The translations under genes were made by a program, and so were the position numbers. A stretch of 64,000 nt of DNA, from contig JANQIO010000236.1 in the NCBI GenBank assembly GCA_028282105.1, positions 14,571 to 78,570 on the forward strand. Direction: 5' to 3'. How positions within the stretch are numbered: position 1 is the first letter of the stretch; the number at the start of each line of letters is the position of its first letter. This DNA comes from Halieaceae bacterium (GTDB lineage Bacteria; Pseudomonadota; Gammaproteobacteria; Pseudomonadales; Halieaceae). The notes below the pieces were generated by a model. It worked only from the letters and a program-made list of their open reading frames with translations. It made no database searches and was not told where the DNA came from. Shown piece by piece: positions 8,218 through 34,677 of this stretch.

Positions 8218-10670
<2,453 letters not shown>

Positions 10671-16106: not shown

Positions 16107-16245
16107 TGTAACGCAATGCAGGTTCAGACCGGGCTGACGGCGCCCGGGTTCCCCGCAGCGGGGCGCGCTGCCTCGCTGGCCATTTCGGTGCGCTTGGCGC
16201 ATAATTGCGCGCTTTTCGAGGCGGGGCCCTCCGCACTGCGGCATA

Positions 16246-16390
16246 AAATGCCTCCAGCCATTAAATGGCCTCCAGCCTGTAGAGGGCCTGTGGCCAGTAA
16301 AGGGCCTCCAGCTAATTACAGGGCCTCCAGCCAATACCACTGGTCCGGCGCCAGCCAGCACCACTGGCAGGCTTCCAGCCCAGACCCAGA
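16246..16390. repeat. Degenerate tandem array, about 7 units of 18-25 bp with core GGCCTCCAGCC
   Basis: Read directly: aaatgcctccagccatt / aaatggcctccagcctgtagag / ggcctgtggccagtaaag / ggcctccagctaattacag / ggcctccagccaataccactggtcc / ggcgccagccagcaccactggcag / gcttccagcccagaccc. Lies in the divergent region between lptF (-) and sulfotransferase 1 (+). Confidence 0.85.
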
Positions 16391-16401
16391 GATAGCACCG
16401 G

Positions 16402-17334: not shown

Positions 17335-17335
17335 G

Positions 17336-19092: not shown

Positions 19093-19173
19093 GCGCGAAT
19101 TGTACGGGCTCGCGCGAAAGCGCAGCAAGCGGGACGCCCGGTAATAGTGCGGCAAATCAAGAATTCCTGTATC

Positions 19174-20130: not shown

Positions 20131-21065
20131 AGCTGGCTATCCAGAACCTGCGGCAGGCCCTGCAAACCGCCAACAAGAAGCTGTCGCGGCGAATCCTGCA
20201 CTGGCGTATGCGCGGCAAATCTGAAGTGGAAATTCTTGAAGCCGAGCGCAAGCTGCGCGGCGTTGAGCAGTATGACAAGCTGCGTCGGGCCGACGTTGTG
20301 GTAGTGAGCTTTGGCAAGAGCGGCCGCACCTGGCTGCGGGTCATGGTGTCGCACCTGTTTCGGGTCATGCACGGGCTACCGGATAACGCCATTCTCGGCT
20401 TTGACAATTTTCACAACCTCAATCGCGCGGTGCCGAAAGTCTTCTTTACCCACGACAATTACATCAAGGACTTCACCGGCGACTTTGATACCAAGCAGCC
20501 TTTTTATGACAAGAAGGTTGTGCTGCTGGCCAGGGACCCTCGGGACGTGGCCGTGTCACAGTTCTTCCAGTGGAAGTTCCGCATCAAGCCCTCAAAGGTG
20601 GCCATCAACAACTATCCCCCCCGCGGCTCGGATATCAGCCTGTTCGACTTCGTCACCGGCGACAACGGCGGCAGCATGCGGGCGGTGTGCGACTACCTGA
20701 ACCTTTGGGCGGCGGAAGCCGGCAAGGTCGAGGATTTTTTCCTGCTGCGCTATGAGGAACTGCGCTCGGAACCGCACAGGAAATTGCGGGAGATGCTCGA
20801 CTTTATGCAGGTGGATGCCAGCGATGACCACGTGGATGCTGCAGTGGAATACTCCTCCTACGAAAACATGAAGAAAATGGAGAGTAAGCAGCAGTTTCGC
20901 CTGGCGGGCGGTCGCATGATGCCGCGGGACAAGGACAACCCCAACAGTTACAAGGTGCGGCGAGCCAAGGTGGGCGGCTACCGGGACTACTTCAACGACG
21001 ACGAAGTCCAGGCGATCGACCGCCTGCTGGCAGAATCACTGCACCCGCTGTTCGAGTACTCCTGA
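20127..21065 (+). CDS. PAPS-dependent sulfotransferase, paralog 3
   Basis: GTG start at 20127 overlaps the paralog 2 stop (GTGA). 5'-PSB loop FGKSGRTW, block LLARDPRDVAVSQFFQWKF, and C-terminal RRAKVGGYRDYF. Confidence 0.85.
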   Translation: MKLAIQNLRQALQTANKKLSRRILHWRMRGKSEVEILEAERKLRGVEQYDKLRRADVVVVSFGKSGRTWLRVMVSHLFRVMHGLPDNAILGFDNFHNLNRAVPKVFFTHDNYIKDFTGDFDTKQPFYDKKVVLLARDPRDVAVSQFFQWKFRIKPSKVAINNYPPRGSDISLFDFVTGDNGGSMRAVCDYLNLWAAEAGKVEDFFLLRYEELRSEPHRKLREMLDFMQVDASDDHVDAAVEYSSYENMKKMESKQQFRLAGGRMMPRDKDNPNSYKVRRAKVGGYRDYFNDDEVQAIDRLLAESLHPLFEYS

Positions 21066-21154
21066 TAAGTCGGTACAAATACCCTTGTTTTGCTGGCCAT
21101 CCCGGGTAGTGTGATGGGCAAGCCGCACACAGAGGCGGTGCCTGGAGTGAACCC

Positions 21155-21376
21155 ATGGGTAGTACGCAAGGTATTCAAGCCGTTTTCCGGCTCGCGGCGA
21201 TGCTGCTGATGCTCGCCTGCCTGCCCGCCTGTACCGCGATGGCAGTAACTGGCGCGGTCGTGGGCGCCGCCACCGCGGTGGCCGTCGAAGTGGTTGAGGT
21301 ACCGTTTGAGGTGGCCAGCGGCGTACACGGCGCGATCACCGACGACGATGAAGACGACGAAGACGAGGACGGCTAG
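21155..21376 (+). CDS. Small hypothetical protein, possible lipoprotein with poly-acidic tail
   Basis: 73 aa. Hydrophobic N-terminus with a Cys-containing LACLPAC, a Gly/Ala/Val-rich middle, and a C-terminal DDDEDDEDEDG. Coding status is uncertain. Confidence 0.4.
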   Translation: MGSTQGIQAVFRLAAMLLMLACLPACTAMAVTGAVVGAATAVAVEVVEVPFEVASGVHGAITDDDEDDEDEDG

Positions 21377-21711
21377 CCTGACGCCATGCAGGCGATGCAG
21401 CGAGTCGTGGTAGGGTCGAATTCGAGACGCGCCGGGTCTATCGCCTCACCGCAATTGAAGCACTCGCCGTAGTCTCCGTTCGCTATACGGCGTAACGCGC
21501 CTTCAATGCCGGCCAGCTGGAGCTGGCGCCGGCGCGCGGTTTCCCGGGCCATGCTCTGGGCCTGCATGGCATCCATTCGAGACAGGCGGCCTACCCGGGC
21601 CTGGTCCAGTTCCACCGTGGAGGCCGCGGATTCGGATTCACCTGCCAGCGCTTCCAGCTCGGTGCGCAATTGCTGGAGGCGTTGCCGGAAATACTCGAGG
21701 TCGATCACCAT
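21373..21711 (-). CDS. TraR/DksA-family C4 zinc-finger protein
   Basis: 112 aa with a coiled-coil N-terminus, then CFNCGEAIDPARLEFDPTTTRCIAC (CxxC-N17-CxxC). Confidence 0.8.
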   Translation of the reverse strand: MVIDLEYFRQRLQQLRTELEALAGESESAASTVELDQARVGRLSRMDAMQAQSMARETARRRQLQLAGIEGALRRIANGDYGECFNCGEAIDPARLEFDPTTTRCIACMASG

Positions 21712-21720
21712 TGAAGCTGC

Positions 21721-22272
21721 CTAAGCCAGCTTGCTGACCCGGTCGCCGCGGCGGATGCGGCCCGATTGAACGACGCGGGCATTGATCCCGCGCAAATGCA
21801 ATGCCTTGCCAGTGTCCGAATTGACAAAGCGCAGTGCGTCGTCACCGAAGCGTTCGCGGAACTTGCGGCAGCCGAGGTGGGGTTGGTCGGTCACCTCCAC
21901 CAGGGCTGTGCCGATGGCGAGCCGGCTGCCGGGTGGCAGGTTGGCTTCGCTGAGGTCCAGATCCACATAAAGCTGGTCTCCGGCCAGTGCCCAGCGTGCT
22001 TCGGTCCCGGCGATCAGTTCGATCGCACGGGCATTCATGATGTTGAGCTGCATGTCGGGGTGGGCGCTGCCGTCCCTGGTCCGCGACGAACCGCGGCTCA
22101 ACCAGTTGTCTCCCACCAGGCCGCGCTCGGTGCACAGCTCCGCCTCTACCAGCTCCTCGCGTTCGTTGCCGGCAGGCCGCCTGACCACCATTTGCAATTC
22201 ACCGCAGTCCGACGGTGCCGCGCGGATATGCGCCAGCCCCGCTTGCAGTTGTTCCGAAGTGCTATGATCCAT
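21721..22272 (-). CDS. MOSC domain-containing protein
   Basis: ORF track extends to 22296; trimmed to the ATG at 22272 (MDHSTSEQLQ). Blocks GLVGDNW and LHLRGINARVVQSGRIRRGD are typical of MOSC beta-barrel proteins. Confidence 0.7.
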   Translation of the reverse strand: MDHSTSEQLQAGLAHIRAAPSDCGELQMVVRRPAGNEREELVEAELCTERGLVGDNWLSRGSSRTRDGSAHPDMQLNIMNARAIELIAGTEARWALAGDQLYVDLDLSEANLPPGSRLAIGTALVEVTDQPHLGCRKFRERFGDDALRFVNSDTGKALHLRGINARVVQSGRIRRGDRVSKLA

Positions 22273-22285
22273 AGTGTCTCTCCCG

Positions 22286-23374
22286 TCAGGCTGCAAAGCG
22301 CTGTAATCCTATAAAGCGAGTGTCAAAGCTCGAGCTGCCGCCGGTGACCCGGTCGACCAGCAATTGCCCGAGCGCCGGCGCCAGTTTGAAACCGTGCCCC
22401 GATAAGCCGGCGGCGAAGGCCACTCGCTCGCTACCGGGTATGTTGTCGACGATGAAGTCCGCATCGGGGGTCATGGTGTAGAAGCAGCTCGCATGTTTCA
22501 GCCGCGTGGGCATAACGCCTGGCAGGTGATCTGCAATGAACGCCTCGATACGCTGATCGTCTGTCGGATCGCGTTCGCGGCTGGCGGTCAGTGGGTCGGT
22601 GACGGCTTCACCGCCGCTGTGCTCGGCCAGCTTCAGGCGGCCATCGCGAGCCGGGAAACCGTAGAATTGGCCGTGGGGCAGTTCGATAAAAAAGCCGTGT
22701 TGGTAGCGCTGATCCTGGCACTGGAACCAGTGCAGATGTTTGCGTGTGACTGTCAGAGGCAGATCCAGTTGAGACAGCAGTTGATGGCTCCAGGCACCAC
22801 CGGCAACTACCAGTCGGTCTGCAGAGTAGTTGCCGCGGTCGGTAATCACCTGGATGCCGGCTTCCCGTTCCCGCCAGTCTTCTATGGTTTCGCCCCAGCG
22901 ATGCTCCGCCCCCTGGTGCAGCGCCGCCGCCAGGTGAGCGCGCACGCAGGCCTCCACCGGCAGCCAACCGGCGTCCGGCTCGAACAGGGCGCAGGCGTCG
23001 CCGGGAATCAGATATTGCGGGAAATCACTGGCTTCCACGCGGTCGACTGTCAGGTCGTGTTCGCGGGCCGAGGCCAGCACGCCGCGAATCGTGTCACCCT
23101 CGGCGGGACCGGCGTAGAGAATGCCGCTGCGATGCAACAGCGATGGGTCCAGCGCATCCCACAGCGCATAGCTGTGGCGCAGCAGCGGCACATAGTCCGG
23201 GTGCTCGAAATACGACAGCCGGATCAGGCGCGATTCGCCGTGCGAGCTGCCGCGGTCGTGGGCAGGCGGGAAACGGTCCAGGCCTAAACAGCGCAGGCCG
23301 CGGCTGGCGGCATGGAAGAGGGCGGCGCTGCCGATGCCGCCGGTGCCCAGTACGATGAGGTCGTAGTGGGCCAT
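22286..23374 (-). CDS. solA: FAD-dependent N-methyl-L-amino-acid (sarcosine/N-methyltryptophan) oxidase-like
   Basis: 362 aa. Dinucleotide fold YDLIVLGTGGIGSAA, SSHGESRLIR, and a flavinylation-site-like ASCFYTMTPDADFIVD, matching my recollection of E. coli SolA. Confidence 0.75.
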   Translation of the reverse strand: MAHYDLIVLGTGGIGSAALFHAASRGLRCLGLDRFPPAHDRGSSHGESRLIRLSYFEHPDYVPLLRHSYALWDALDPSLLHRSGILYAGPAEGDTIRGVLASAREHDLTVDRVEASDFPQYLIPGDACALFEPDAGWLPVEACVRAHLAAALHQGAEHRWGETIEDWREREAGIQVITDRGNYSADRLVVAGGAWSHQLLSQLDLPLTVTRKHLHWFQCQDQRYQHGFFIELPHGQFYGFPARDGRLKLAEHSGGEAVTDPLTASRERDPTDDQRIEAFIADHLPGVMPTRLKHASCFYTMTPDADFIVDNIPGSERVAFAAGLSGHGFKLAPALGQLLVDRVTGGSSSFDTRFIGLQRFAA

Positions 23375-23382
23375 GCCCTGGC

Positions 23383-24285
23383 TCAGGCGGCCCGGACAGC
23401 GTCAACCAGGTCGAAGGCGTCTTCGCGCAGGTGGCCGGCGCTGATCTCGTCCTGGAGTTGTGCCTCGCTGATCTCGCCGGCATCCAGGCACTCTTTCACG
23501 AGGCCGAAGAAAAAGGCTTCCTGGGCCGGGTCGGGATGCTGGGCGTAGGTGCCGGCAAACTTGTAGTCGCCGAACAGGGCGCGCCGGGCGCGGCGCAGCC
23601 AGTGGCGTGGCGGGAACAGTTGGAAGGTATCGGCCGGCCGGTAGTCAATCTTGAGGCCGGTTTTCCAGGGCTGGGTCTTGCGCTTGGTGTTATGCAGTAG
23701 CTTGGTGTCCGCGGTGAGATTGTCGAAGTCGTTCCACTCGTTTTCCAGCACGCCGATGGTTGCCGGGTCCTCCAGCTTCAGGGATACCCAATCCATGTAG
23801 TCGCGGCGTACGTCGGGCTCGAACATCGCTTCGAAGTTCTCCTCGAACTTCCAGTGGCCGAGTTTCTCGCAGTCCAGCAGCATCACGCTGGATGCCCAGG
23901 CACCCTTGCGGCCCTTGCGGCCTGACTTGGGCCGGCACATGATGGCCTTGCCGCCCATATCGCGTTGCAGCAAATCCTGCACATCGGCGAGGGCAAAAAT
24001 ATCCGGGTCCATAACCACCGCGCGCCCCTGGTAGCCCATAAGCTGGGGCGGTGCGAAGCGCAGGGGCGTGAAGGACTGCAGGTCCTCGTTGACCCAGGGG
24101 CGCATTTCGCCGTCCCGGCGGTAGCGCTTGCCTTCGCGCGCCGCCATGCAGGGGAAATCCTTGACCTCGATGAACCTCACATCGAAGGCATCCGGGTTGT
24201 GGGCGTGCTTCTTCAGGGAGAAGCGGCTCACCAGCGCACCGAGCATCTGCTTGTGGTTGGTGTGAATAAATACCGTGGGTTTCAT
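23383..24285 (-). CDS. Uncharacterised GT-A-like (GT8-like topology) putative glycosyltransferase, paralog A
   Basis: 300 aa. Blocks FIHTNHKQ, LQSFTPLRF, GRAVVMDPDIFA (DxD-like D-P-D), ASSVMLLDCEKL, EWNDFD and HPDPAQEAFFFGLVKEC. The block order mirrors GT8 enzymes, but I cannot name a family. Confidence 0.5.
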   Translation of the reverse strand: MKPTVFIHTNHKQMLGALVSRFSLKKHAHNPDAFDVRFIEVKDFPCMAAREGKRYRRDGEMRPWVNEDLQSFTPLRFAPPQLMGYQGRAVVMDPDIFALADVQDLLQRDMGGKAIMCRPKSGRKGRKGAWASSVMLLDCEKLGHWKFEENFEAMFEPDVRRDYMDWVSLKLEDPATIGVLENEWNDFDNLTADTKLLHNTKRKTQPWKTGLKIDYRPADTFQLFPPRHWLRRARRALFGDYKFAGTYAQHPDPAQEAFFFGLVKECLDAGEISEAQLQDEISAGHLREDAFDLVDAVRAA

Positions 24286-24323
24286 GGTTTCCGGCAGTTC
24301 AAAGCTTGGGATAGTCTAGCGCC

Positions 24324-25388
24324 ATGAGCGAACACGAGCCAAATATCTGGTGCTTGCTGGGCAGGAAGGCGGGCGATAATACACAGGTGCGCGCCCTCGC
24401 AGAAGCCCTGGCTGTCAGATTCACGGAAAAACAGATTCTTGCCCGCGCTTACGAACTGCTACCGCAGCTGCTGCTGCGCGTCACGCTCGCCGGTATCGAC
24501 CGCGGTGCCTCCAGCGAGCTGGCGCCGCCCTGGCCAGACCTGGTGATCACCGCGGGCCGCCGCAATGAACCGGTAGCTCGCTGGATTCAGCGTCAGTCTG
24601 GCGGTCACACGCGGCTGGTTCACATCGGCCGACCCTGGGCGCCGCTGGACGCCTGGGACCTGGTGATCACCACGCCTCAGTATTTCCTGCCTGAACAGGC
24701 CAATGTGCTACACAACCAGCTACCGCTGCACCGTCGCCAGGCAGGGGAGGTCCCCGATCAGTGGCGCCAGCGTTTCGAGCCCTTGCCGCGACCGCTGATC
24801 GCAGTGCTGGTGGGGGGCGACAGCGGCAAATTTGTCATGACCGATGACAAGGGCCGGCGGCTCGGGCAGCTGGCGGGCGGGCTGGCGCAGCGGGCCGATG
24901 GCTCTCTGGTGTGCGTTGCCAGTCCCCGCACCCCAATATCGGCGTTTGCGGCACTCAGTGACAGTGCCGGGGCACCGGCCCAGTGCTTTCCCTGGGGAGG
25001 TGAAAATCCCTATCAGTCACTGTTGGCATTGGCGGACGCTTTCGTGGTCACCGGTGAGTCCATGTCCATGCTGGGGGAGGCCGCTGACAGCGGCAAGCCG
25101 TTGTTGATCTACGATATGGCAGACCCGGACCCGCGCTGGTGGCGGCAGGCTCACAACTATCGCTACAAACCCCTGAGCCATCGACTGGCGATGCGATTCG
25201 GTCCGCAGCGAATGCGGCGCGATGTCGGGCGTATTCAGCACGCCCTGGTGCGGGCGGGCCAGGCCAGCTGGCTCGCCGAGGGGTCGACAGTGTCGGGGCA
25301 GAGCGCTGCAGTTGTAGCGCCGTTTGATAGCAGCGCCGAGCTGCTGCGCTCGGCGCAGGCGGTCAGGCGGCTTCTGCCACCGCGCTGA
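24324..25388 (+). CDS. ELM1/GtrOC1-family putative glycosyltransferase, paralog C
   Basis: 354 aa. Blocks PWPDLVITAGRRNEPVARWIQRQSGGHTRLVHIGRPW, DLVITTPQY and VTGESMSMLGEA. The 3' end overlaps the convergent GT-A-like paralog B by 26 nt. Confidence 0.72.
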   Translation: MSEHEPNIWCLLGRKAGDNTQVRALAEALAVRFTEKQILARAYELLPQLLLRVTLAGIDRGASSELAPPWPDLVITAGRRNEPVARWIQRQSGGHTRLVHIGRPWAPLDAWDLVITTPQYFLPEQANVLHNQLPLHRRQAGEVPDQWRQRFEPLPRPLIAVLVGGDSGKFVMTDDKGRRLGQLAGGLAQRADGSLVCVASPRTPISAFAALSDSAGAPAQCFPWGGENPYQSLLALADAFVVTGESMSMLGEAADSGKPLLIYDMADPDPRWWRQAHNYRYKPLSHRLAMRFGPQRMRRDVGRIQHALVRAGQASWLAEGSTVSGQSAAVVAPFDSSAELLRSAQAVRRLLPPR

Positions 25389-26307
25389 GTGGGTGTTGTG
25401 AGGGCGGCGGCAGGTCCGGCGTGCGTGCCAGTACCTCGAAAGCGTCGTGGCGGACGTGGTTTTGCGCCATCTCCTTGCGGATGAACTCCTCGCTGATCTT
25501 GCCCTGCTCGATACACTCCTTGAGCAAGCCGAAGAAGAAGTTCTCCTGGTTCTGGTCCGGGTGCTGCTTGTAGTTGCCCAGGAAAGCGTATTCACCGAAC
25601 AGCTTGCGGCGCGCGCGCATGATCCAGGCCGCTGGCGGGAACAGCCGGAAGCGCTCCGCGGGTCGCCAGTCGGTGGGCAACCCGGTCTTCCAGGGCTGGG
25701 TCTTGCGACGGGTAGTGTGCAGCATCTTGGTGTCGGTGGTGAACTTGTCGAAGTCGTTCCACTCGGCCTCGAAGAAGTCAATGCTGTCGCGGTCTTCTTC
25801 CTTCAGGCACACCCAGGGCTGGTAGTCCTGGGTGAAATCGAACATGGCGCGAAACTTGGCTTCCGCATCCCAGTGCGTCAGCTTGGCGCAGTCGAGGAGC
25901 ATCACGCTGGAGGCCATGCAGCGGTCAACCAAACCTTTGGGCCCGGAGCGCATGCGGCACATGATGGCCTTGCCCTGCATGTCTCGGTTCAGCAATTCCC
26001 AGATGTCGGCAGCGGCAAAGATGTCCGGATCGATCACCACCGCGCGACCTTCAAAGCCCATCAGGCCCGGGGGCATGAAACGGGTGGGGGTGAAGGATTG
26101 CAGGTCGTCATTCAGCCAGGTGCGCTTGACCCCGTCGCGCAGGTACTCCTTGCCTTCAAACTCGGCGAAGAACGGGTAGTCGCGACTGTCCATGATCTGG
26201 ACATCGAACTTGTCATTGTTGGTGGAGTAACGGCGCAGGGCGTGCTCGGCAACAATCGCACCGGTAATCTGCTTGTGATTGGTCTGGATGAATACGCAGG
26301 CTTTCAT
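25363..26307 (-). CDS. Uncharacterised GT-A-like putative glycosyltransferase, paralog B
   Basis: ORF track extends to 26340; trimmed to the ATG at 26307 (MKACVFIQTNHKQ). Same blocks as paralog A (LQSFTPTRF, GRAVVIDPDIFA, EWNDFD, HPDQNQENFFFGLLKEC). Confidence 0.5.
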   Translation of the reverse strand: MKACVFIQTNHKQITGAIVAEHALRRYSTNNDKFDVQIMDSRDYPFFAEFEGKEYLRDGVKRTWLNDDLQSFTPTRFMPPGLMGFEGRAVVIDPDIFAAADIWELLNRDMQGKAIMCRMRSGPKGLVDRCMASSVMLLDCAKLTHWDAEAKFRAMFDFTQDYQPWVCLKEEDRDSIDFFEAEWNDFDKFTTDTKMLHTTRRKTQPWKTGLPTDWRPAERFRLFPPAAWIMRARRKLFGEYAFLGNYKQHPDQNQENFFFGLLKECIEQGKISEEFIRKEMAQNHVRHDAFEVLARTPDLPPPSQHPLSAVAEAA

Positions 26308-26408
26308 AAACGCTTGGCAGGGGTGTTGATAGGCGCGCAACTATAAAGCAAAGCGTCCGGATTTTCTATGCGGGCCGGCGCTCAAGACGGTGAATTTCAG
26401 CGCAGCTA

Positions 26409-27371
26409 TCAGCGCGAGTAGTAGTTGATGCTGCGCCCGGTGAGGGAGGTGTAGAGCACCCCGAAGGCCTTGGCCATGCGGTACAGGTTGTGCATCAGCA
26501 TGCCCTTGGAGAACACTGAAAAGGGCAGCAAAAACAACGACATAAGGATTTTGCTGAGGGAGGTGGCCAACAGTTTAATGGCCCGTATGCCGGTGCCGTG
26601 GGCGCGCGCCATGCTGACCTGCGAGCAGCCATTCTTGAACCCTCGCTTGAGCAGGCCGCGGGCGGTGTAGCGCTCGGGCTCATGGTTGCGGTGAATCACC
26701 GACATATCCGCCGATGCCAGGCTGGCCCCCAACTCGTGGGCGCGAATGAAGAAGTCCTTGTCCTCGCCACCGCTGAAGCGGAAGGTGTGGTTGAACACCG
26801 GGCCGATGGTGGCGATCCGCTCGAGGATGCTGCGGCCCACCAAGGCGTTGCAGGTGGAGGCACAGCCGGGCAGGCCGTAGCGGCCGCCTTTGTTTTCATG
26901 CTTGGCTTTCACCGGTGAGCGGAAGATCCCGGATTCCCTCGCCCATTGGGGCATGAAGGAATCGAGCACCCAGGTACCGAATACCAGGTCGGCGCCGGTC
27001 ACGGCCTGCCGGTCCAGCAGCTGGATGAGCCAGTCGGACTGCGGCTGGTCGTCGTCGTCGATAAAGGCCAGGAAATCGGCGCCCCGCTCCAGGGCCACCT
27101 CGACCCCGCGGTTGCGGGCGTAGGTTATACCGGAGCGCGGCTCGGTCACGTAGTGAATAGAGATCGGCAGGCGCGGCGCCGCGCGCTGGCAGATGGCTTC
27201 GGTTTCGGGATTGGGGTTGTTGTCAACCACGATCAGCTCCACCGAGCTCGGGTTGTAGCCGCTGAGGTCGATATCCTGCAGCGCGACCAGCAGGCGCATC
27301 AGTCCCTGGGAGCGACTGTGGGTGCAGACGCAGATGGCGACCCGCAGGTCGATGATCGTGCTGACTGTCAT
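26409..27371 (-). CDS. Family 2 glycosyltransferase
   Basis: ORF track extends to 27440; trimmed to the ATG at 27371 (MTVSTIIDLRVAICVCTHSR). Blocks VVDNNPNPET, ARNRG and AFIDDDD (DxD) fit the GT2 pattern. Confidence 0.82.
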   Translation of the reverse strand: MTVSTIIDLRVAICVCTHSRSQGLMRLLVALQDIDLSGYNPSSVELIVVDNNPNPETEAICQRAAPRLPISIHYVTEPRSGITYARNRGVEVALERGADFLAFIDDDDQPQSDWLIQLLDRQAVTGADLVFGTWVLDSFMPQWARESGIFRSPVKAKHENKGGRYGLPGCASTCNALVGRSILERIATIGPVFNHTFRFSGGEDKDFFIRAHELGASLASADMSVIHRNHEPERYTARGLLKRGFKNGCSQVSMARAHGTGIRAIKLLATSLSKILMSLFLLPFSVFSKGMLMHNLYRMAKAFGVLYTSLTGRSINYYSR

Positions 27372-27394
27372 GGTGAGACTGTCATTGTGAATTG

Positions 27395-28321
27395 CTACTT
27401 GAAAATACCGCGGCGGTAGAGGCCCCAGAAAAAGCCCCACATGTGAACCAGTGGACGCCGCCGCACGCGCTCGGGAATCTCAATCGGCTCCCCCGAGTGG
27501 CGCTCCAGCTTCCATGCGATATAGTCGAGTCCCCCCTCGAACGTAAACAGTGCCTTGACCAGGCGCAGCACTGATAGTGTCTTTCCCTGTACCACCCGCA
27601 GGCGCCATGCCCACGCTGCCGTCTTCCTGACGCCTGTGGGTATGTCGCTCCTATAGCGTTCATCATACACATGAAATGGGAACACAAGCGAATCGGCGTG
27701 GAATGTTGTGACGGACCGGTAGAAATCGGCTGCGGTGAGCACCAGTTCCCGCGCGCGGCCGCTGCGCTCCGTGCGCAGCTCGGTGCCGTAGCTCAAGCCC
27801 AGCGCGCCCTCCCACAGCTCCGCCAGCGAGCCCTCCGCCGGCAGGGCCGGCAGGGCCCTGTGCAATAGCGTGTAGGCGGCGTCCAGCAGACAGTCTTCGA
27901 CCTGTTGTCGGGTTTGTGGGCTGCGGCTCCAGGCAATCCGGGTGGGCTGCGCAAAGCGACCCCAGATATAAGACTGGAACCAGCCGCGGCTGCAGCCGCG
28001 GCGGAAGTCTGCCAGCGAGATCACCGTCACCTTGCTGCGCAGCACCTGTTTGTCCCAGAGCTGCTCGGCGTAGAACACGTTGGGGGGCAACAGCCGGTTG
28101 GCCAGCGCCAGAACGCCGTGGCCATAGGCCTGCGGGTAATCGTCGCACAGCAGGTAGATATCCAGCAGGCCGTCAAAGATGTCGCCGCTGCGCAGGCAGG
28201 ACCCGTATACCAGCACTGCCGCGATCGAGTCGTTGTGGCGTTGGCGCAGGGCCGAGACCAACTGGCCCAGGGCCGGGTGACTCTCGGTATCCGGGCCGTT
28301 GACGGCGGGATAATCACTCAT
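27395..28321 (-). CDS. Hypothetical protein with Tam41/Mmp37-like (nucleotidyltransferase-fold) pattern
   Basis: 308 aa. The pattern VLVYGSCLRSG..LLDIYLLCDD...PPNVFY...KVTVISLADF....WFQSYIWGRFAQPTRI resembles, from memory, the Tam41 pattern YGSG..DxIFxV...VYFNP..KYGVxS...L...W..xYLxGRxQKP. ATGA overlap with the upstream kinase gene. Needs an HMM check. Confidence 0.4.
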   Translation of the reverse strand: MSDYPAVNGPDTESHPALGQLVSALRQRHNDSIAAVLVYGSCLRSGDIFDGLLDIYLLCDDYPQAYGHGVLALANRLLPPNVFYAEQLWDKQVLRSKVTVISLADFRRGCSRGWFQSYIWGRFAQPTRIAWSRSPQTRQQVEDCLLDAAYTLLHRALPALPAEGSLAELWEGALGLSYGTELRTERSGRARELVLTAADFYRSVTTFHADSLVFPFHVYDERYRSDIPTGVRKTAAWAWRLRVVQGKTLSVLRLVKALFTFEGGLDYIAWKLERHSGEPIEIPERVRRRPLVHMWGFFWGLYRRGIFK

Positions 28322-29283
28322 GGCCGGATAAACGTCAGCGCCTCGGTAGCGCTGATGTCCAGCGGTCCATGCACCGGCAGGATTTCACCGTCCAGGTTCA
28401 CCTCGCCTTCCATCCACAGTTGCACGTTGTCGGCATTGTGACTGAAGTAGCCCTGGGCGGGTACCGCGTTGCGGCTGGGCTTGCCGCGGGCGATGCTGGC
28501 GAAGGTGCGGGCGAAGCGGCTGCAGCCCTGTTCCATCAGGGTCAGGCGCAGGGCGCCGGGTCCGGTTCCCCAGAACGGGCGCATTCCAAAGGCCAGCCGC
28601 CCCAGGGTGCTGACTGCCAGGATCAGCGCCTCGTGGTCGGTCCTGGGCTGCCCGTCAAGGCTAAGGCCAATGCGTTGGTCGCCGGTGAACTCCGGCTGTC
28701 CGCGCACTACGCCCCAGACGGTGCGCAGCGTGCCCAGCGCCAGGCTGAAATCATCTCGCAGGCCGCGGGAGTGGATTTCGCGATGCGCGTACTCGGTGCC
28801 CTGGATAACGGCACCGGCGCCCAGGAACATGCCAAAGTGGCGCTGTTCACCGATATCCAGGCGCAGCAGCCGCCGCTGACGAGGCGGCTCCGATAGACCG
28901 CGCTGGCCCCCACACCAATCGCAGAAGCGATTGACCGCGCGCGCCAGTGAGCCGCGCAGGCCAACGTCCCCGGCGTTCATATTGGCGGTGCCGCCCGGCA
29001 GCAATACCACGGCGGGCGGCGTCGCGAAGAACCCACCCTCCAGCATCTGGCCCAGCAGCGCCGAGTTGGTGCCGTCGCCGCCGTTGATGCCCAGCACTTC
29101 GATCCCCAGCTCTGCCAGGGTGCTGAGCGCTGCCGGTATCTCCTCCGCGCTGTGGGTGACGATATGGTGAATCGATGGCGTCGCATCGATGCGCTGGCGG
29201 AACTGCTCGAACTGGTCGCGGTTGTGGCCACTGGCCGGGTTGCTGACCAGGCCCACCGGCGTGTCTGCCGTAAAGCGGGTCAC
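28318..29283 (-). CDS. Diacylglycerol-kinase-fold lipid kinase (YegS/sphingosine/ceramide-kinase-like)
   Basis: 321 aa. N-terminal VSNPASGHN and the catalytic-domain signature GINGGDGT. GTG start overlaps the upstream stop (GTGA). Confidence 0.78.
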   Translation of the reverse strand: MTRFTADTPVGLVSNPASGHNRDQFEQFRQRIDATPSIHHIVTHSAEEIPAALSTLAELGIEVLGINGGDGTNSALLGQMLEGGFFATPPAVVLLPGGTANMNAGDVGLRGSLARAVNRFCDWCGGQRGLSEPPRQRRLLRLDIGEQRHFGMFLGAGAVIQGTEYAHREIHSRGLRDDFSLALGTLRTVWGVVRGQPEFTGDQRIGLSLDGQPRTDHEALILAVSTLGRLAFGMRPFWGTGPGALRLTLMEQGCSRFARTFASIARGKPSRNAVPAQGYFSHNADNVQLWMEGEVNLDGEILPVHGPLDISATEALTFIRP

Positions 29284-30062
29284 GGTGTGGAATCCCGCAA
29301 CTCCACGGACTTCAGGGTCAGCGCCACGTAGCCCAGTCGGGGCGCCTTGCCCCGCACCTGCAGCGGCAGGCCGGTCTCGCGGTCGAAGGCCAGCAGCAGC
29401 TCGCCGGACAGGCCCAGCAAGCTGAAGTCGGGTTTGTCCGCCGCGGGTTGCAGCAGCTCTGCAGTGACCAGCAGCAGGTCTACCTCGCGGTGCCGGGTGC
29501 CAAAGCCGGCGAGCGCTGGATCCACCTCGACGAGATCTTCACCCGCGGCTTTGGCGCTGACCCGGTACAGGTTGAGGTCGGTATTCACCAGGAAGCTCTG
29601 GCTGGCTGCACCGGGCTGGAGCAGGGCAATCAGCAGCAGGGGATCGGTGACCCGCGGCTCGCCTTCCGGGTAGTCGATCCGGCGCTGGCTGGTGAGCTGC
29701 CATTCGCCGCTGGCATCGGGCTCCAGGCGCTCGCGGCTAATCCCGTTCAAACCGTAGCGCCATTGCTTGCGGCGCCGGTCATTGCCCTCGCTGAAGCGCC
29801 GACGCTCCAACAGGCTGCCATCGGGGCGGGCGCTGAGGCTGATGCGCTCACGGTTATTGGCCACGCTGTTGCTGGCTTCCAGGCACCAGGCTGCTGCGGA
29901 CTCCTGACAGGCATCGAGCTCCAGTTGTGATCGCGCCGTGGCCCAGAAAGCTTTTTCTTCAAACACCAGGGAGCGCCAGGCCGGCAGCGGTGATTCGGTC
30001 GTCGGTTCGGCGCCGGCCAGCAACGGCAGGCCGAGCAGGATAGTCAGCGCCAGCGGTTTCAT
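29280..30062 (-). CDS. Secreted hypothetical protein
   Basis: ORF track extends to 30155; trimmed to the ATG at 30062 (MKPLALTILLGLPLLAGAEP, a signal peptide). ATGA overlap with the upstream O-antigen-ligase-like gene. No family recognised. Confidence 0.55.
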   Translation of the reverse strand: MKPLALTILLGLPLLAGAEPTTESPLPAWRSLVFEEKAFWATARSQLELDACQESAAAWCLEASNSVANNRERISLSARPDGSLLERRRFSEGNDRRRKQWRYGLNGISRERLEPDASGEWQLTSQRRIDYPEGEPRVTDPLLLIALLQPGAASQSFLVNTDLNLYRVSAKAAGEDLVEVDPALAGFGTRHREVDLLLVTAELLQPAADKPDFSLLGLSGELLLAFDRETGLPLQVRGKAPRLGYVALTLKSVELRDSTP

Positions 30063-31228
30063 TCGACGCTCCCAGCCTGGAAAGGCAGCCTGTGCCCATG
30101 CCGGTGCGGATAGGCTGCGGCCACCAGGGCGACCGGCAGCCACAGGTACAGCCACATCTCCTTGGGGTGCACGAACAGGCGATCGAAATCCATGAATATG
30201 CAGGTCATACCGTATAAGAGTAGCGCGAGGTAGAGTCGTTCCCCACGGCTTCTGAGCAGTCCCACGGCCTGCACCAGTGCCGTACCGAGCAGCACCAGCA
30301 GCAGTATCAGCCCTACCAGACCGCCATCCCGCAGGGTGGCCAGGTAGCTATTGTGAGCGTGGTTGAATACCCGGTCGTAGGCGCTGACGTGGGGGTCCGC
30401 CAGGTAGCCGTGGCCCAGCAGCCAGTGGCCCGGCATATCCGCCACCACCTGCTGCCAGATGCCGGGCCGGAAGGAAAAACTCAGCACCCGGCTTGCCCAC
30501 TCGCCCGGGTTGCTGGCCAGCAGCCCCAGGCTGACCACGCCGGCGGCCAGCGCCGGCAGCAGCGCCCGCCAGCCCAGCAGGACCAGCAAACCCATGCACA
30601 CACCTGCCAGGGCGGTGCGGGACTGGGTCAGCAGCACTAGGGCACCCAGCACCAGGGCCAGGCCGGCGTAGGCCCAGCGGCGCGGCCGGTCATCGATGGC
30701 CAGTTGCACGCTCAGTACCAGGAACAGGCCATAGGCAGCACCGGCCTTGTTCTGGTGATGCATGACACCCAGAGGCTCCAGTCGAGCGCTGGGGAAAGGA
30801 TGCTGGGCATACCAGCTGACAATCGAGACCAGGGCTGCAGCGGCTGCCAGCCAGGGCAGCCAGCGGCCATAGCTGTCAATCTGTTCGGCGTTGTTGATCC
30901 ACAGGTAGCCGGTAATCGCCACGAAGGACAGCAAGTTGAGGCTCAGCCACAGCTGCCAGCCGGCGGCGGCGACGCTGAAGTTTGTCGACCAGGCCAGAGT
31001 CAGCATCATCCATCCGGCGTAGGCCAGCACCAGGGCCAGCAACTGATTGCCCCGGTAGAAACGGTAAAGCTCGCGCCACAGCAGCACCACGGCGGGAAAC
31101 ACCAGCAGGTAGTAGAGGCGTCGGTGCCCCGATGCCATGGGCAGGAGAAAATAGCCGGCAATGAACAGGCTGTACAGGTACAGCATGCCGCGCTCGAGCA
31201 GGAATCCTCGAATTTGCCTGATTTCCAT
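30059..31228 (-). CDS. O-antigen ligase/polymerase-family (Wzy_C-type) polytopic membrane protein
   Basis: ORF track extends to 31639, antisense into the next gene; trimmed to the ATG at 31228 (MEIRQIRGF). About 10 TM segments. Blocks LTQSRTALAG and GHGYL....HAHNSYLATLRDGGLVGL are typical of WaaL/Wzy_C. Confidence 0.72.
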   Translation of the reverse strand: MEIRQIRGFLLERGMLYLYSLFIAGYFLLPMASGHRRLYYLLVFPAVVLLWRELYRFYRGNQLLALVLAYAGWMMLTLAWSTNFSVAAAGWQLWLSLNLLSFVAITGYLWINNAEQIDSYGRWLPWLAAAAALVSIVSWYAQHPFPSARLEPLGVMHHQNKAGAAYGLFLVLSVQLAIDDRPRRWAYAGLALVLGALVLLTQSRTALAGVCMGLLVLLGWRALLPALAAGVVSLGLLASNPGEWASRVLSFSFRPGIWQQVVADMPGHWLLGHGYLADPHVSAYDRVFNHAHNSYLATLRDGGLVGLILLLVLLGTALVQAVGLLRSRGERLYLALLLYGMTCIFMDFDRLFVHPKEMWLYLWLPVALVAAAYPHRHGHRLPFQAGSVE

Positions 31229-31345
31229 TGAGATCAATAACTTGGGGCCGGCGAAAGGCGGCAAAAATACCACAGAATCTTGTGCATGGACCACGCATCC
31301 TTTACCCTGCGCGTTTTTTAACCTGCCCGGTTCCGGGGACATTAC

Positions 31346-32290
31346 ATGCACGCTGTTATCAAGCGACTGATTAAGTGGCTGGTCCGCGCGATCAAGAAAT
31401 TCCTGCCCGAAGAACAGGGCCACAAGCTGGAGCGCTGGCGCCGCGGTCGCGAGGAATTCTGGAAATACAGGCAATGTGATTACATCTTTGCCTCCTATGG
31501 CAAAAGCGGCCGCACCTGGGTGCGGGTGATGATCTCCCGCTATTACCAACTGGTCTACAAACTGCCCGACAACATCCTGATGGGCTTCGACAACTACCAG
31601 CGCCTGAACCGCGATATACCGAAGATATTCTTCACTCACGACAACTACCTGCGACAGTTCACCGGCAACATGGACTCGAAACAGGACTTCTACGATAAGA
31701 AGACGGTGCTATTGGTCCGTGACCCACGCGATGTGGCGGTGTCGCAGTTCTTCCAGTGGAAGTTCCGCATGCGGCCCGACAAGAAGTCCATGAACAACTA
31801 CCCGGAGCACGAAGCTGACATCTCCGTCTACGACTTCGTGAAGCACCAGGGGCAGGGCCTCAACCACATCATAGATTTTATGAACGCCTGGGCCACTGAG
31901 CTGGATAAGATCGAGAACCTGCTGATTGTGCGCTACGAAGACCTGCGTGCCGACGCCGCCACCGAGATGGCGCGGGTGGTGGATTTCCTGGGCATGGAGC
32001 CCAATCGCGAATACCTGGAAGACATGGCGGAGTTCGCCTCGGTGGAAAACCTGCGCAAAAAGGAACAGGAAAACTACTTCTGGCGCAGCGGCTCCCGGGT
32101 GCAGGCCAAGGACGTCAACGACCCCAATACCTACAAGGTGCGCAAAGCCAAGGTCGGGGGCTTCCGGGACTACTTTGACGATGATCAAGTGGCAGAACTA
32201 AGCGCCATGGTAGATTCGCGCCTGCTCCCGGTGTTCGGCTATACCAGCGCCGAACAGCAGGGGACGGCGGCACAAGCGAGCGAATCCTGA
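31346..32290 (+). CDS. PAPS-dependent sulfotransferase, paralog 4
   Basis: 314 aa. 5'-PSB loop YGKSGRTW, block LLVRDPRDVAVSQFFQWKF, and C-terminal RKAKVGGFRDYF. Confidence 0.85.
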   Translation: MHAVIKRLIKWLVRAIKKFLPEEQGHKLERWRRGREEFWKYRQCDYIFASYGKSGRTWVRVMISRYYQLVYKLPDNILMGFDNYQRLNRDIPKIFFTHDNYLRQFTGNMDSKQDFYDKKTVLLVRDPRDVAVSQFFQWKFRMRPDKKSMNNYPEHEADISVYDFVKHQGQGLNHIIDFMNAWATELDKIENLLIVRYEDLRADAATEMARVVDFLGMEPNREYLEDMAEFASVENLRKKEQENYFWRSGSRVQAKDVNDPNTYKVRKAKVGGFRDYFDDDQVAELSAMVDSRLLPVFGYTSAEQQGTAAQASES

Positions 32291-32291
32291 C

Positions 32292-33212
32292 ATGGAAAAA
32301 TGCGTCTTTATACACACCAATGAACGGCAGTGGCTGGGTGCGCTGGTGGCGGAGTATTCCTTCAAACGCAACTCACGCAATCCCGACGCGTTTGACGTTC
32401 GTTTCATCCATACCCGCGACCATGCCTTCCTCGCGGAGAAGGAAGGCAAGACCTTCCTGCGCGGCGGCACCACCCGCGAATGGCGCATGGACGACCTGCA
32501 GTCCTTTACACCGCTGCGCTTTCTACCGCCCAAGCTGATGAGTTTCGGCGGCCGCGCCGTGGTCACCGACCCGGATGTGTTCGCTGTGGGCGACATCAAC
32601 GAGCTGCTGGACCGTGATATGCAGGGCAAGGCCGTACTCGGACGCCACCGCTCTGCGAAAGAGGGCAAGGCTTACCAGGTGGCCACCAGCGTCATGCTGA
32701 TGGACTGCGCGAAGCTCTCGCACTGGGATGTGGAAGCCGACTTCGACGCCCTGTTCCGCTACGAGAAAGACTACAAGGAATGGATGGTGTTGGCCTACGA
32801 GGACCCTGAGAACATCGGTTACCTCGAAGACTGCTGGAACGACTTCGACCACCTGGGCGCTGAGACCCGCTTGCTGCACAACACCAAGCGCCGTACCCAG
32901 CCCTGGAAGACGGGCCTGCCGGTGGACTATACGCCGGCGGACAAATTCAAGGACAAGCCCCTGCTGGCTTCTCTCAACCGACTGCGGGCTCGACTGTTTG
33001 GCGAATACGGCCTGCTGGGCCACTACCACCCGCACCCGGATAGTCACCAGGAGGCCTTTTTCTTCGGTCTGCTCAAGGAATGCCTTGAGCACGGCCATGT
33101 TAGCGAAGCCCTGGTGCGAGACGAAATGGCGAAGAACCACGTGCGCCACGACGCCTTCGAGGTGCTGGAGCGCACCCCGCCGCTGACGGAGCAGCCTGCT
33201 CTGGCAGCCTGA
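32292..33212 (+). CDS. Uncharacterised GT-A-like putative glycosyltransferase, paralog C
   Basis: 306 aa. The ATG lies 1 nt after the sulfotransferase 4 stop. Blocks FIHTNERQ, LQSFTPLRF, GRAVVTDPDVFA, CWNDFD and HPDSHQEAFFFGLLKEC. Confidence 0.5.
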   Translation: MEKCVFIHTNERQWLGALVAEYSFKRNSRNPDAFDVRFIHTRDHAFLAEKEGKTFLRGGTTREWRMDDLQSFTPLRFLPPKLMSFGGRAVVTDPDVFAVGDINELLDRDMQGKAVLGRHRSAKEGKAYQVATSVMLMDCAKLSHWDVEADFDALFRYEKDYKEWMVLAYEDPENIGYLEDCWNDFDHLGAETRLLHNTKRRTQPWKTGLPVDYTPADKFKDKPLLASLNRLRARLFGEYGLLGHYHPHPDSHQEAFFFGLLKECLEHGHVSEALVRDEMAKNHVRHDAFEVLERTPPLTEQPALAA

Positions 33213-33244
33213 GCCGCCCGGGCAGTCGACGAGGACTAGCTGTA

Positions 33245-33961
33245 ATGAAATACCTGGATATTGAGAAACTCCGCGCGCTGGGCCGTGAGGAGTTCATGGC
33301 CACCAGGCCCTACCCGTTCTTCAACACCGAGGGCATGCTCACCGAGCAGGGCTTCCAGGATCTGCTGCACAACATGCCGCCGCTGGAGTCCTTCGGCGAG
33401 ATCTTCGGCAAGGAGCGCCGCGCCGGCCAGGCCCCCCATGATCGCTACTCGCTGGAGTACACCCCGGACACCGAGGTGCCCCTGCCCTGGAAAGAGTTTA
33501 TCGGCGAGCTGTGCAGCGATGACTACCGCCGGGAGATTGAGCGCCTGCTGGGCGCGAAGAAGGCGGAATTCCGCTTTCACTGGCACTACACGCCGACGGG
33601 GCGCGACGTCTCACCCCACTGCGATGCCCGCCGCGAGCATGGCTCACACCTGTTCTACTTCAACTCGGAAGAGGACTGGAAACCGGAGTGGGGTGGATCC
33701 ACTCTGGTGTTGGATGATGGTGGGCGCCTCAGCTATGACTCGGCGCCGGCCCTGGAAGAGTTCGATTCGGTGCACGAGATGGATTCCATCGGCAACTACA
33801 GCGCCCTGATGTTGCGCACCGATCACGCCTGGCACGCAGTTCGGCCCATCAACTGCCCGGAAGACCGGCTGCGGCGCATCTTCATCGTGGTCGTCAATCC
33901 CGACAAGCTGTTCTGGAAGGTGCGTGACCGCATCATCGGCAAGCAGATCCAGCGCTTCTGA
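33245..33961 (+). CDS. Small 2OG-Fe(II) oxygenase-superfamily protein, paralog B
   Basis: 238 aa. Blocks VSPHCDARREHGSHLFYFN and DHAWHAV (HxD...H candidates). Same general layout as 18466..19092. Confidence 0.6.
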   Translation: MKYLDIEKLRALGREEFMATRPYPFFNTEGMLTEQGFQDLLHNMPPLESFGEIFGKERRAGQAPHDRYSLEYTPDTEVPLPWKEFIGELCSDDYRREIERLLGAKKAEFRFHWHYTPTGRDVSPHCDARREHGSHLFYFNSEEDWKPEWGGSTLVLDDGGRLSYDSAPALEEFDSVHEMDSIGNYSALMLRTDHAWHAVRPINCPEDRLRRIFIVVVNPDKLFWKVRDRIIGKQIQRF

Positions 33962-33966
33962 GCGGC

Positions 33967-34677
33967 TTGCCTGAACAGCTTGGGCCTGGCTCGGCCCACC
34001 TCTGGCTGTGCTCCCTGGAGGCGGCATCCGCCCTTGACGCCTCGGTGCTGAGCGCCGAGGAGGCTGCGCGTCGCCCCGAGGCCGCCCTGGGCCGTGTCTG
34101 GCAGCGTCACCTGCTCTCGCACTACGCCGCCACATCCCCTGCCGACTGGCAGTTTGAGACTGGCCGCCACGGCAAACCCCGGCTGACGCCCGTGCAGCCG
34201 CTGGAATTCAATCTCAGCCATTCCGGCGACTGGTTGGTGATGGTAGTGGCTGAGGGAGTACCGGTGGGGGTCGACATCCAGCAGTGGGACTCCCAGCGCC
34301 GGCTAGACCGGCTGGCCCGACGGTATTTTTCGGGCCCGGAAGTCGAGCTGTTGTCCAGCCTGGACGGGGATGCGCAGTTGCGGCACTTCTATCGGCTCTG
34401 GACCCTCAAGGAGGCGTGGACCAAGGCCCATGGCGGTGCCCTGCCTACCGCGCTGGGTGAGGTCGGCTATCGGCTGGAGGGGGAGGCTCTTGTCTGCCTG
34501 GCGCCGGGTGCTGGCGAGCACAGCAGCCAGTGGTTGGCCGAACTGGACGGTTACAGCCTGGCGTTTTGCGGCCTGCAGCGGGGCATCGCGCTGCAGTCCA
34601 GGGAATGGTTGTCGCCTGCCCGTTTCAGGCCCTGCGAGTTGGCTGCCGTGGCCGGCGACGGCTTGCGGCAGGGGTGA
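33967..34677 (+). CDS. 4'-phosphopantetheinyl transferase (Sfp/EntD type)
   Basis: 236 aa from a TTG start in the ORF track. Blocks FNLSHSGDW, GVDIQ and WTLKEAWTKAHG are the classical PPTase motifs. Confidence 0.8.
   Translation: MPEQLGPGSAHLWLCSLEAASALDASVLSAEEAARRPEAALGRVWQRHLLSHYAATSPADWQFETGRHGKPRLTPVQPLEFNLSHSGDWLVMVVAEGVPVGVDIQQWDSQRRLDRLARRYFSGPEVELLSSLDGDAQLRHFYRLWTLKEAWTKAHGGALPTALGEVGYRLEGEALVCLAPGAGEHSSQWLAELDGYSLAFCGLQRGIALQSREWLSPARFRPCELAAVAGDGLRQG

Follow-up and report, generated by a model that had tools for sequence, protein, structure and literature searches.

How ceramide-1-phosphate is converted into complex anionic sphingolipids in bacteria has been a standing question since 2022. 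In Caulobacter, where such lipids can partly replace lipopolysaccharide (LPS) and set polymyxin sensitivity, the closest described system is the protein pair CpgB-CpgC (CCNA_01218-01219 / CC_1160-CC_1161). CpgB acts in vitro as a ceramide kinase (PMC10331486), and deletion of cpgC leaves ceramide-1-phosphate in place and abolishes ceramide phosphoglycerate (CPG) (PMC9393093). CpgA, a PgsA-like cytidine diphosphate (CDP)-alcohol transferase, is required only for the second phosphoglycerate, and CpgD makes CDP-glycerate (PMC12275187). Olea-Ozuna et al. found that CC_1161 (CpgC) and its alpha- to deltaproteobacterial homologues carry IPR015222 (Tam41/Mmp37) (PMC11324152, supplement), and suggested in 2024 that CpgC may produce a ceramide activated as a nucleoside diphosphate (NDP) (PMC11324152). 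A May 2026 preprint describes CpgC as acting "via an unidentified mechanism". Here we analyze a gene pair of this type, encoding a lipid kinase and a Tam41-like protein, in a 64-kb stretch of DNA from a Halieaceae bacterium, a marine gammaproteobacterium. We refer to the whole stretch as the window and give all positions in its numbering. The pair lies inside a sphingolipid locus of about 35 kb (83..34677).

The pair is a gammaproteobacterial representative of the CpgB/CpgC type, from the Halieaceae, and not a new type. Since the genetics of cpgB-cpgC are published and an NDP-ceramide was proposed in 2024, along with the Tam41 domain already recognized in CpgC, the pair is less novel than first thought. 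What is new is structural support for the Tam41 assignment across the family, three types of natural gene fusion, and the gene composition of a locus that predicts glycosylated, sulfated ceramide-phosphate lipids undescribed so far. These results extend the module to the Halieaceae (the OM60/NOR5 group), an abundant marine clade. The fold, the profile comparison and the fusions together sharpen the hypothesis to a Tam41-type cytidylyl transfer onto ceramide-1-phosphate; if this is true, CDP-ceramide would be the sphingolipid counterpart of CDP-diacylglycerol and, as an activated lipid intermediate, new.

The kinase and the Tam41-like protein

The kinase gene (29283..28318, minus strand; GTG start, 321 amino acids [aa]) is followed on the same strand by the Tam41-like gene (28321..27395; ATG start, 308 aa), and the end of the one overlaps the start of the other by 4 nt, read at the junction as CC-ATGA-GT. 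An earlier note on this DNA had described both reading frames and their translational coupling as we find them, and the coupled run extends two genes further upstream. Four genes are chained by 4-nt ATGA or GTGA overlaps: the stop of a gene for a Wzy_C-like protein (31228..30059) overlaps the start of a gene for a secreted 260-aa protein (30062..29280) as ATGA, and the stop of the latter overlaps the GTG of the kinase as GTGA.

To place the pair in a wider setting, related loci were sampled as the best 80 of a scan of a genome collection, all from other species-level genomes and all of Halieaceae type. The kinase and Tam41-like genes were neighbors in 77 of the 80, and on this account their association is not due to chance. 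The genes for the secreted protein, the kinase and the Tam41-like protein stood side by side in 75-77 of these loci, and most other genes of the locus recurred as well. The Tam41-like family comprised 2039 relatives at 90% clustering, mostly from Halieaceae and Halioglobus metagenome bins, and 1179 representatives at 50% clustering; isolate-type records among the carriers include Halioglobus japonicus, Pseudohaliea rubra DSM 19751 and Halieaceae bacterium WMMBA7.

The Pfam domain DAGK_cat was found at residues 10-120 of the kinase (45.1 bits against a cut-off of 23.6), with the motif NGGDGT at residues 67-72. Its GGDGT core (68-72), which the earlier note had singled out, is invariant in 30 homologues. 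Matches to the NCBIfam models for YegS/BmrU-type lipid kinases were weak and far under their cut-offs. An AlphaFold2 model based on an alignment of 30 homologues (pLDDT 83.5) was compared with the Protein Data Bank (PDB) using Foldseek, and matched sphingosine kinase 1 (SphK1), DgkB/Bacillus anthracis diacylglycerol (DAG) kinase and YegS with E-values of 1e-15 to 1e-11 and template modeling (TM) scores of 0.56-0.72. The matches spanned the whole two-domain fold, and the best was to human SphK1. The DAGK_cat match and the SphK1/DgkB/YegS fold show that the kinase call of the earlier note was correct: the protein is, as modeled, a two-domain lipid kinase of the DAGK/sphingosine-kinase fold. DAGK_cat, GGDGT and the two-domain fold are shared with DgkB, YegS, SphK1 and CERK, whereas the window kinase falls in a separate bacterial clade, which has been described for CpgB (PMC10331486). 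Because the Caulobacter member of this kinase family is a ceramide kinase, we infer that the window kinase turns ceramide into ceramide-1-phosphate.

The earlier note had regarded the resemblance of the second protein to Tam41/Mmp37 as its weakest call, and had named a profile scan and a fold search as checks. The scan returned Tam41_Mmp37 (PF09139) as the sole Pfam match, at a score of 15 bits (E 0.016) that lies under the cut-off of 24, and no NCBIfam model matched the protein. The same Pfam model was matched by 28 of 30 close relatives at E <= 1 and by 18 of 61 diverse relatives at E <= 0.01, and P0125, a relative with 48% identity to the window protein, scored 34.3 bits, above the cut-off. 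Since the window protein falls short of the threshold while relatives pass it, we treat it as part of a divergent branch of the superfamily; its own score does not place it in the curated family.

Profile searches against PDB sequences gave a clearer relationship. A profile of 61 diverse family members (A2) matched Schizosaccharomyces pombe Tam41 (6ig2/6ig4) with an E-value of 1.9e-7 and 33.7 bits over profile positions 88-235. This more diverse profile was required, as a profile of close homologues (A1) reached Tam41 at E 0.16 only, and the single sequence gave only a chance-level match to BotH (E 0.14). The Firmicutes Tam41 (7ecd) was not reached by the A2 sequence search. In the significant central segment of the A2 alignment, GRFxxP, LSYxxxxR and K97 were matched to S. 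pombe Tam41, while the YGS loop and the single Asp were aligned only in a weak N-terminal segment of the hidden Markov model (HMM), which is not significant alone. Tam41 has a single conserved acidic residue in its active site (PMC11646218). Among the 61 diverse Tam41-like members, Y39, G40 and D54 are invariant and S41 is nearly so, and within the family the C-terminal 70 residues are strongly conserved.

The fold search found the Tam41 nucleotidyltransferase fold. Using an AlphaFold2 model of the Tam41-like protein (pLDDT 86.6, pTM 0.85), the top five Foldseek matches in the PDB were all Tam41 structures, with or without cytidine triphosphate (CTP), at E-values of 1.9e-8 to 4.2e-8 and TM-scores of 0.47-0.62. 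The best was Firmicutes Tam41 with CTP-Mg (7ecd; E 1.9e-8, TM 0.55/0.62), followed by S. pombe 6ig2/6ig4. The next fold class, the aminoglycoside nucleotidyltransferases ANT(4'), appeared at E ~1e-4 and TM ~0.3. A generic nucleotidyltransferase resemblance was rejected, as, compared with all other nucleotidyltransferase folds, the Tam41 structures had E-values lower by about four orders of magnitude and TM-scores about twice as high. Judged from sequence profiles and a predicted structure, the Tam41-like protein is a divergent member of the Tam41/Mmp37 nucleotidyltransferase superfamily, in a branch that is mostly under the curated Pfam threshold, and the assignment made in the earlier note holds at the superfamily level (A2 profile E 1.9e-7; top five folds Tam41).

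Compared with the Tam41 structures 6ig2/6ig4 and 7ecd, the predicted fold is alike, consisting of a nucleotidyltransferase domain and a helical/winged-helix domain, and the GRFxxP and LSYxxxxR motifs align with the family of the window protein, as do YGS and the single Asp within the weak N-terminal segment. Both are soluble, peripheral-type proteins of about 300 aa. However, the window protein is only ~15% identical to Tam41 and has a sphingolipid context, where Tam41 belongs to cardiolipin and phospholipid metabolism; the likely substrate is different, being ceramide-1-phosphate for the window protein and phosphatidic acid (PA) for Tam41.

Gene fusions and the cpg-type loci

Three types of natural fusion of the Tam41-like domain were found among distant representatives of the family, in other lineages. 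In P0202 (662 aa) it is joined to a CpgB-like kinase, and the gene of P0271, a near-identical member of the same cluster, lies directly after a CDP-OH_P_transf gene. P0262 (757 aa) joins the domain to a CpgA-like CDP-alcohol phosphatidyltransferase, in a cluster of 21 members on contigs of up to 103 kb, one of them labelled Lysobacterales. In P0201 (594 aa) the partner is a MobA-like nucleotidyltransferase resembling CC_1153. The partner domains are 35-45% identical to the matching proteins of the Pseudomonas locus described below. These fusions functionally tie the Tam41-like enzyme to the kinase that would supply its substrate and to a CDP-alcohol transferase, the class of enzyme that consumes CDP-activated phosphoalcohols. 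A CDP-alcohol phosphatidyltransferase fusion of 757 aa (P0274) is located at 10001-12274 of loci L081/L082. Genes for an NTP_transferase and for a fatty-acid hydroxylase flank that of the CDP-OH fusion, with no kinase gene nearby.

Homologues of the Tam41-like protein (33-41% identity) were recovered by tblastn from three annotated plasmids, namely a megaplasmid of Roseomonas mucosa, a plasmid of Qipengyuania citrea and the IncP plasmid pPNP1 of Pseudomonas; the proteins encoded at the cpgC position of the Roseomonas and Pseudomonas loci are 34-41% identical to it, and in all three records the kinase gene precedes the Tam41-like gene, as it does in the window. The R. mucosa homologue is a hypothetical protein encoded between a DAG kinase gene and spt (34% identity, E 1e-33). 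Gene order there is metallophosphoesterase / CDP-alcohol phosphatidyltransferase - diacylglycerol kinase family - hypothetical homologue / glycosyltransferase family 39 (GT39) / pyridoxal phosphate (PLP)-dependent aminotransferase - acyl carrier protein (ACP), which is the Caulobacter layout cpgA-cpgB-cpgC-spt-acp with one extra gene (GT39). Around it are genes for LptF/G permeases, an NTP transferase, ELM1/GtrOC1, a short-chain dehydrogenase/reductase (SDR), an acyl-AMP ligase and a protein of the phosphocholine-cytidylyltransferase family, and pPNP1 carries the same gene set.

The pPNP1 plasmid of Pseudomonas sp. JS425 (L085, NZ_CP073662.1 62877-83662) holds a complete locus for sphingolipid synthesis, head-group addition and LptF/G on an IncP backbone, adjoining an IS5 transposase gene and a class 1 integron integrase gene. 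This setting suggests that the whole sphingolipid pathway is horizontally movable.

The window kinase is 30% identical to that of Pseudomonas pPNP1 (E 8e-28), 28% to that of Roseomonas and 27% to that of Qipengyuania, which is the same range as that of published CC_1160 orthologue pairs, and Caulobacter CpgB itself was reached through those tables. Gammaproteobacterial orthologues of CC_1161, at 30-32% identity, also stand next to orthologues of CC_1160 (PMC11324152, tables). The link to Caulobacter is indirect, as it relies on published tables of orthologues and on annotated plasmid records, and likeness to Caulobacter was judged from published descriptions.

On this footing, both systems have a DAGK/LCB5 kinase followed by a Tam41/Mmp37-type protein of about 300 aa, the one in a gammaproteobacterium (Halieaceae) and the other in an alphaproteobacterium. 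Common to both are spt, the ACP, the ceramide synthase, the reductase, the acyl-AMP ligase, LptF/G, the MobA-like nucleotidyltransferase and the metallophosphoesterase, and tblastn likewise recovered window counterparts of the reference-locus Spt, ACP, ceramide synthase (bCerS)-like protein, SDR, acyl-AMP ligase, MobA nucleotidyltransferase, metallophosphoesterase and LptF/G. The ELM1 protein and a 316-aa hypothetical protein of the reference loci are each represented by three copies. In contrast to Caulobacter, which has both, the window is without cpgA (CDP-alcohol phosphatidyltransferase) and cpgD (CTP:phosphoglycerate cytidylyltransferase). No tblastn match to the CDP-alcohol phosphatidyltransferases or the CpgD-like phosphocholine-cytidylyltransferase-family proteins of the reference loci was found in the 64-kb window, and such genes may lie elsewhere in the genome. 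The motif DGxxAR(x8)Gx3Dx3D occurs neither in the window nor, up to 8 kb from the pair, in the 80 Halieaceae loci, while positive controls were recovered. The window in turn has genes not shared with Caulobacter, namely those for the Wzy_C-like and secreted proteins coupled to the kinase, four sulfotransferases, a glycosyltransferase of family 2 (GT2), 2-oxoglutarate (2OG) oxygenases, three ELM1-like proteins and three GT-A-like paralogs. Because matches of the cpgA and cpgD types are missing from the window, the Halieaceae module looks like cpgB and cpgC minus the genes for the second phosphoglycerate, with many glycosyl- and sulfotransferases added.

Proposed reactions and their alternatives

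We consider it very likely that the pair forms a module of the CpgB/CpgC type with ceramide as its substrate, and its position in a sphingolipid locus favors ceramide over diacylglycerol. In a pathway to anionic sphingolipids, the two proteins would be the enzymes of the first two head-group steps. The kinase would phosphorylate ceramide, supplied by Spt, the ACP and the bCerS-like and CerR-like enzymes, to give ceramide-1-phosphate. In the Tam41-fold enzyme the lipid phosphate would then attack a nucleoside triphosphate, most likely CTP, yielding CDP-ceramide and pyrophosphate in the way that Tam41 acts on phosphatidic acid; Tam41 and its Firmicutes homologue convert CTP and phosphatidate into CDP-DAG (PMC11646218). 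We put the chances that CDP-ceramide (NDP-ceramide) is the intermediate formed by the second enzyme at about even. A putative transferase could next move the activated ceramide-phosphate to a hydroxyl acceptor, which in Caulobacter is glycerate, and the product might be built up by the glycosyltransferases and sulfotransferases of the locus and exported through the MsbA-like and LptF/G-like proteins. Taken as a whole, ceramide phosphorylation followed by nucleotidyl activation, carried out by counterparts of CpgB and CpgC, is the explanation that we favor as probable.

Several points weigh against it. No CDP-alcohol phosphotransferase that could consume CDP-ceramide was found in the 64-kb window or, across the 80 loci, within 8 kb of the pair, and Caulobacter forms CPG without cpgA. 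CpgB phosphorylates diacylglycerol too in vitro (PMC10331486). The window Tam41-like protein is itself under the PF09139 cut-off (15 against 24 bits), nucleotide specificity is not readable from sequence, and orthology with CpgB/CpgC was drawn through the Roseomonas, Pseudomonas and Qipengyuania homologues and published BLAST tables. A literature search for CDP-ceramide found no report; the idea itself is less new than the earlier note supposed, as an NDP-activated ceramide had been proposed for CpgC in 2024 (PMC11324152).

The main alternative, possible if doubtful, is that the Tam41-like protein makes a head-group product from ceramide-1-phosphate directly, with no NDP-ceramide, either by adding glycerate or another acceptor or by working with a CDP-activated small molecule as LicD and fukutin do, which are phosphotransferases of the nucleotidyltransferase fold. 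The nearest structures are specifically Tam41 lipid cytidylyltransferases and not LicD-like ones, and the signature residues of Tam41 are retained (the YGS loop and Asp only in the weak N-terminal segment). Zik et al. did propose that CpgC adds glycerate to ceramide-1-phosphate (PMC9393093), but esterification of a phosphomonoester with glycerate needs activation (PMC11324152). An activated small molecule could come from the MobA-like nucleotidyltransferase of the locus, a type of protein that P0201 combines with the Tam41-like domain; however, Caulobacter cpgD and CC_1153 mutants still produce CPG. A direct route would also be in keeping with the missing CDP-alcohol transferase in the window and the 80 loci, and with the Qipengyuania plasmid, where the pair stands almost alone, suggesting a self-sufficient two-gene module.

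Two further readings concern the substrate. A CdsA-independent glycerolipid route, in which diacylglycerol is converted to phosphatidic acid and then to CDP-diacylglycerol as by mitochondrial and Firmicutes Tam41, is suggested by the top fold matches 7ecd and 6ig2, both of them CDP-DAG makers (PMC11646218), and by the comparable rate at which CpgB phosphorylates DAG in vitro (PMC10331486). We judge it very improbable, as the genes lie among sphingolipid genes and are conserved together with them, the family forms a separate, divergent branch that is mostly under the Tam41 Pfam cut-off, and in Caulobacter a cpgB deletion leaves PA levels unchanged and a cpgC deletion specifically loses CPG. Alternatively, the kinase could act on another substrate of the locus, such as a free long-chain base, as does the dihydrosphingosine kinase of Porphyromonas, or a glycolipid intermediate, which the nucleotidyltransferase would then activate. 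Strict adjacency to a CpgC-like gene, as in Caulobacter, where the substrate is ceramide, makes this very improbable in our view. SphK1 is the best structural match of the kinase and the Halieaceae locus has many glycosyltransferases and sulfotransferases that Caulobacter lacks, both of which would fit such a substrate; the identity of just 27-30% to the kinases of cpg-type loci points the same way, but CC_1160 and its recognized orthologues are equally divergent (25-30% in published tables).

Building on the favored route through ceramide-1-phosphate and CDP-ceramide, a more ambitious proposal, which we consider unlikely, is that CDP-ceramide is the Halieaceae entry to a sulfated, LPS-like sphingoglycolipid and hence to a new class of outer-membrane lipid. 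The ceramide-phosphate anchor would be extended by the ELM1-like, GT-A-like and GT2 enzymes and decorated by the four sulfotransferases, a polymer could be joined by the Wzy_C/O-antigen-ligase-like protein, and export would proceed through the MsbA-like and LptF/G-like proteins. Phosphotransfer would have to take place without a CDP-alcohol phosphotransferase, and might be carried out by the Tam41-like enzyme itself or by an unrecognized partner.

Gene content of the locus

A role for the pair in kinase reactions on, or modification of, the LPS core was considered in view of its Wzy_C-like, GT2 and ELM1-like neighbors, and was dropped on finding Spt, the ACP and the other ceramide genes. Serine palmitoyltransferase (Spt; 9468..10670, minus strand) scored 593.6 bits with the NCBIfam equivalog NF047599 (cut-off 500) and is 54% identical to the Roseomonas Spt. 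A dedicated ACP (10733..10957, minus; Pfam PP-binding) has matches in the ACPs of both the Pseudomonas and the Roseomonas locus. The candidate ceramide synthase, a bCerS-like protein of GNAT type with about 400 aa (5154..6356, plus), has a weak Acetyltransf_1 match and is 47% identical (E 7e-99) to a 385-aa hypothetical protein of the Roseomonas sphingolipid locus; the assignment draws on its position and on the literature (PMC9393093). The candidate ceramide reductase is a CerR-like NAD-dependent epimerase/SDR (1145..2068, minus; Pfam Epimerase) with 41% identity to both reference loci, and next to it is a fatty acyl-AMP ligase similar to ACP synthetases (2077..3846, minus; NCBIfam NF006624, 791 bits against 600; 45-49% to the reference loci). 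The counterpart of CC_1153, which the supplement of PMC11324152 calls a MobA-like NTP transferase, is located at 6366..7184 (plus; Pfam NTP_transf_3, 51.3 bits; 43% to the Pseudomonas nucleotidyltransferase), and that of CC_1158, a metallophosphoesterase (Pfam Metallophos; 47% to the Roseomonas protein), at 7265..8194 (minus).

Two paralogous permeases of the LptF/LptG family (13912..16580, minus) scored 187-191 bits with Pfam LptF_LptG and are 31-33% identical to LptF/LptG of the Pseudomonas locus; their reading frames are listed as 13912..15264 and 14979..16580, and the true starts are probably internal. LptF2/G2 have been implicated in sphingolipid export in Caulobacter (bioRxiv 10.64898/2026.04.12.717747). 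An MsbA-like ABC exporter (12069..13823, minus) carries ABC_membrane and ABC_tran domains, and its MsbA-type NCBIfam match is under the cut-off.

Genes that could modify the lipid are abundant. Four Sulfotransfer_1 genes (16402-17334, 19147-20130, 20127-21065 and 31346-32290, all plus) scored 80-89 bits each, and the one at 31346 is kept near the pair in 70 of the 80 related loci; together they suggest sulfated sphingolipid or glycolipid products. Three Mito_fiss_Elm1 (Pfam) genes for putative glycosyltransferases of the ELM1/GtrOC1-like kind (10965-12086, 17234-18469 and 24324-25388, plus) belong to a family that is also present in the Roseomonas and Pseudomonas sphingolipid loci. Three paralogs of about 300 aa (23383-24285 and 25363-26340, minus; 32292-33212, plus) had no match in scans of the Pfam and NCBIfam libraries and were recognized by homology to the reference loci. 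They are ~80-90% conserved across Halieaceae loci and share 43-49% identity with a hypothetical protein encoded in the Roseomonas sphingolipid locus; on Pseudomonas pPNP1, a 780-aa ELM1-fusion protein is homologous to them in its N-terminal part. As they carry a DPD motif, they may be glycosyltransferases of GT-A type. Two genes of the 2OG-Fe(II) oxygenase family and one for a 4'-phosphopantetheinyl transferase (18466-19155, minus; 33245-33961 and 33967-34677, plus) are candidates for lipid hydroxylation and for activation of the dedicated ACP, respectively.

Closer to the pair, a GT2 glycosyltransferase gene (26409..27371, minus; Pfam Glycos_transf_2, 70.9 bits; 35 of 80 loci) begins 23 nt past the Tam41-like gene. 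The first gene of the overlapping run (30059..31228, minus; 65 of 80 loci) encodes a polytopic membrane protein resembling Wzy_C/O-antigen ligases, with a Pfam Wzy_C score of 35.4 bits against a cut-off of 31.7 after trimming to the likely start. The secreted protein (29280..30062, minus), which has 260 aa from its ATG and a signal-peptide-like N-terminus, is encoded upstream of the kinase in 75 of the 80 loci; library scans gave no Pfam or NCBIfam match for it, and it is without a counterpart in the Roseomonas or Pseudomonas loci. In its place, a DUF2141 protein is found near the pair in those two loci.

A literature search found no paper linking the Halieaceae to sphingolipids. Genes for an LpxL-like lipid A acyltransferase (83-1057, minus) and for MurA, the UDP-GlcNAc enolpyruvyl transferase (8218-9657, minus; 587 bits), are interleaved with the sphingolipid genes, and may be either members of the pathway or housekeeping neighbors. 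Beyond the locus, a 675-aa reading frame at 36536-38563 (plus) joins the N- and C-terminal domains of cytochrome b to cytochrome c1, has a Rieske gene upstream, and looks like a fused bc1 gene of the petB-petC type.

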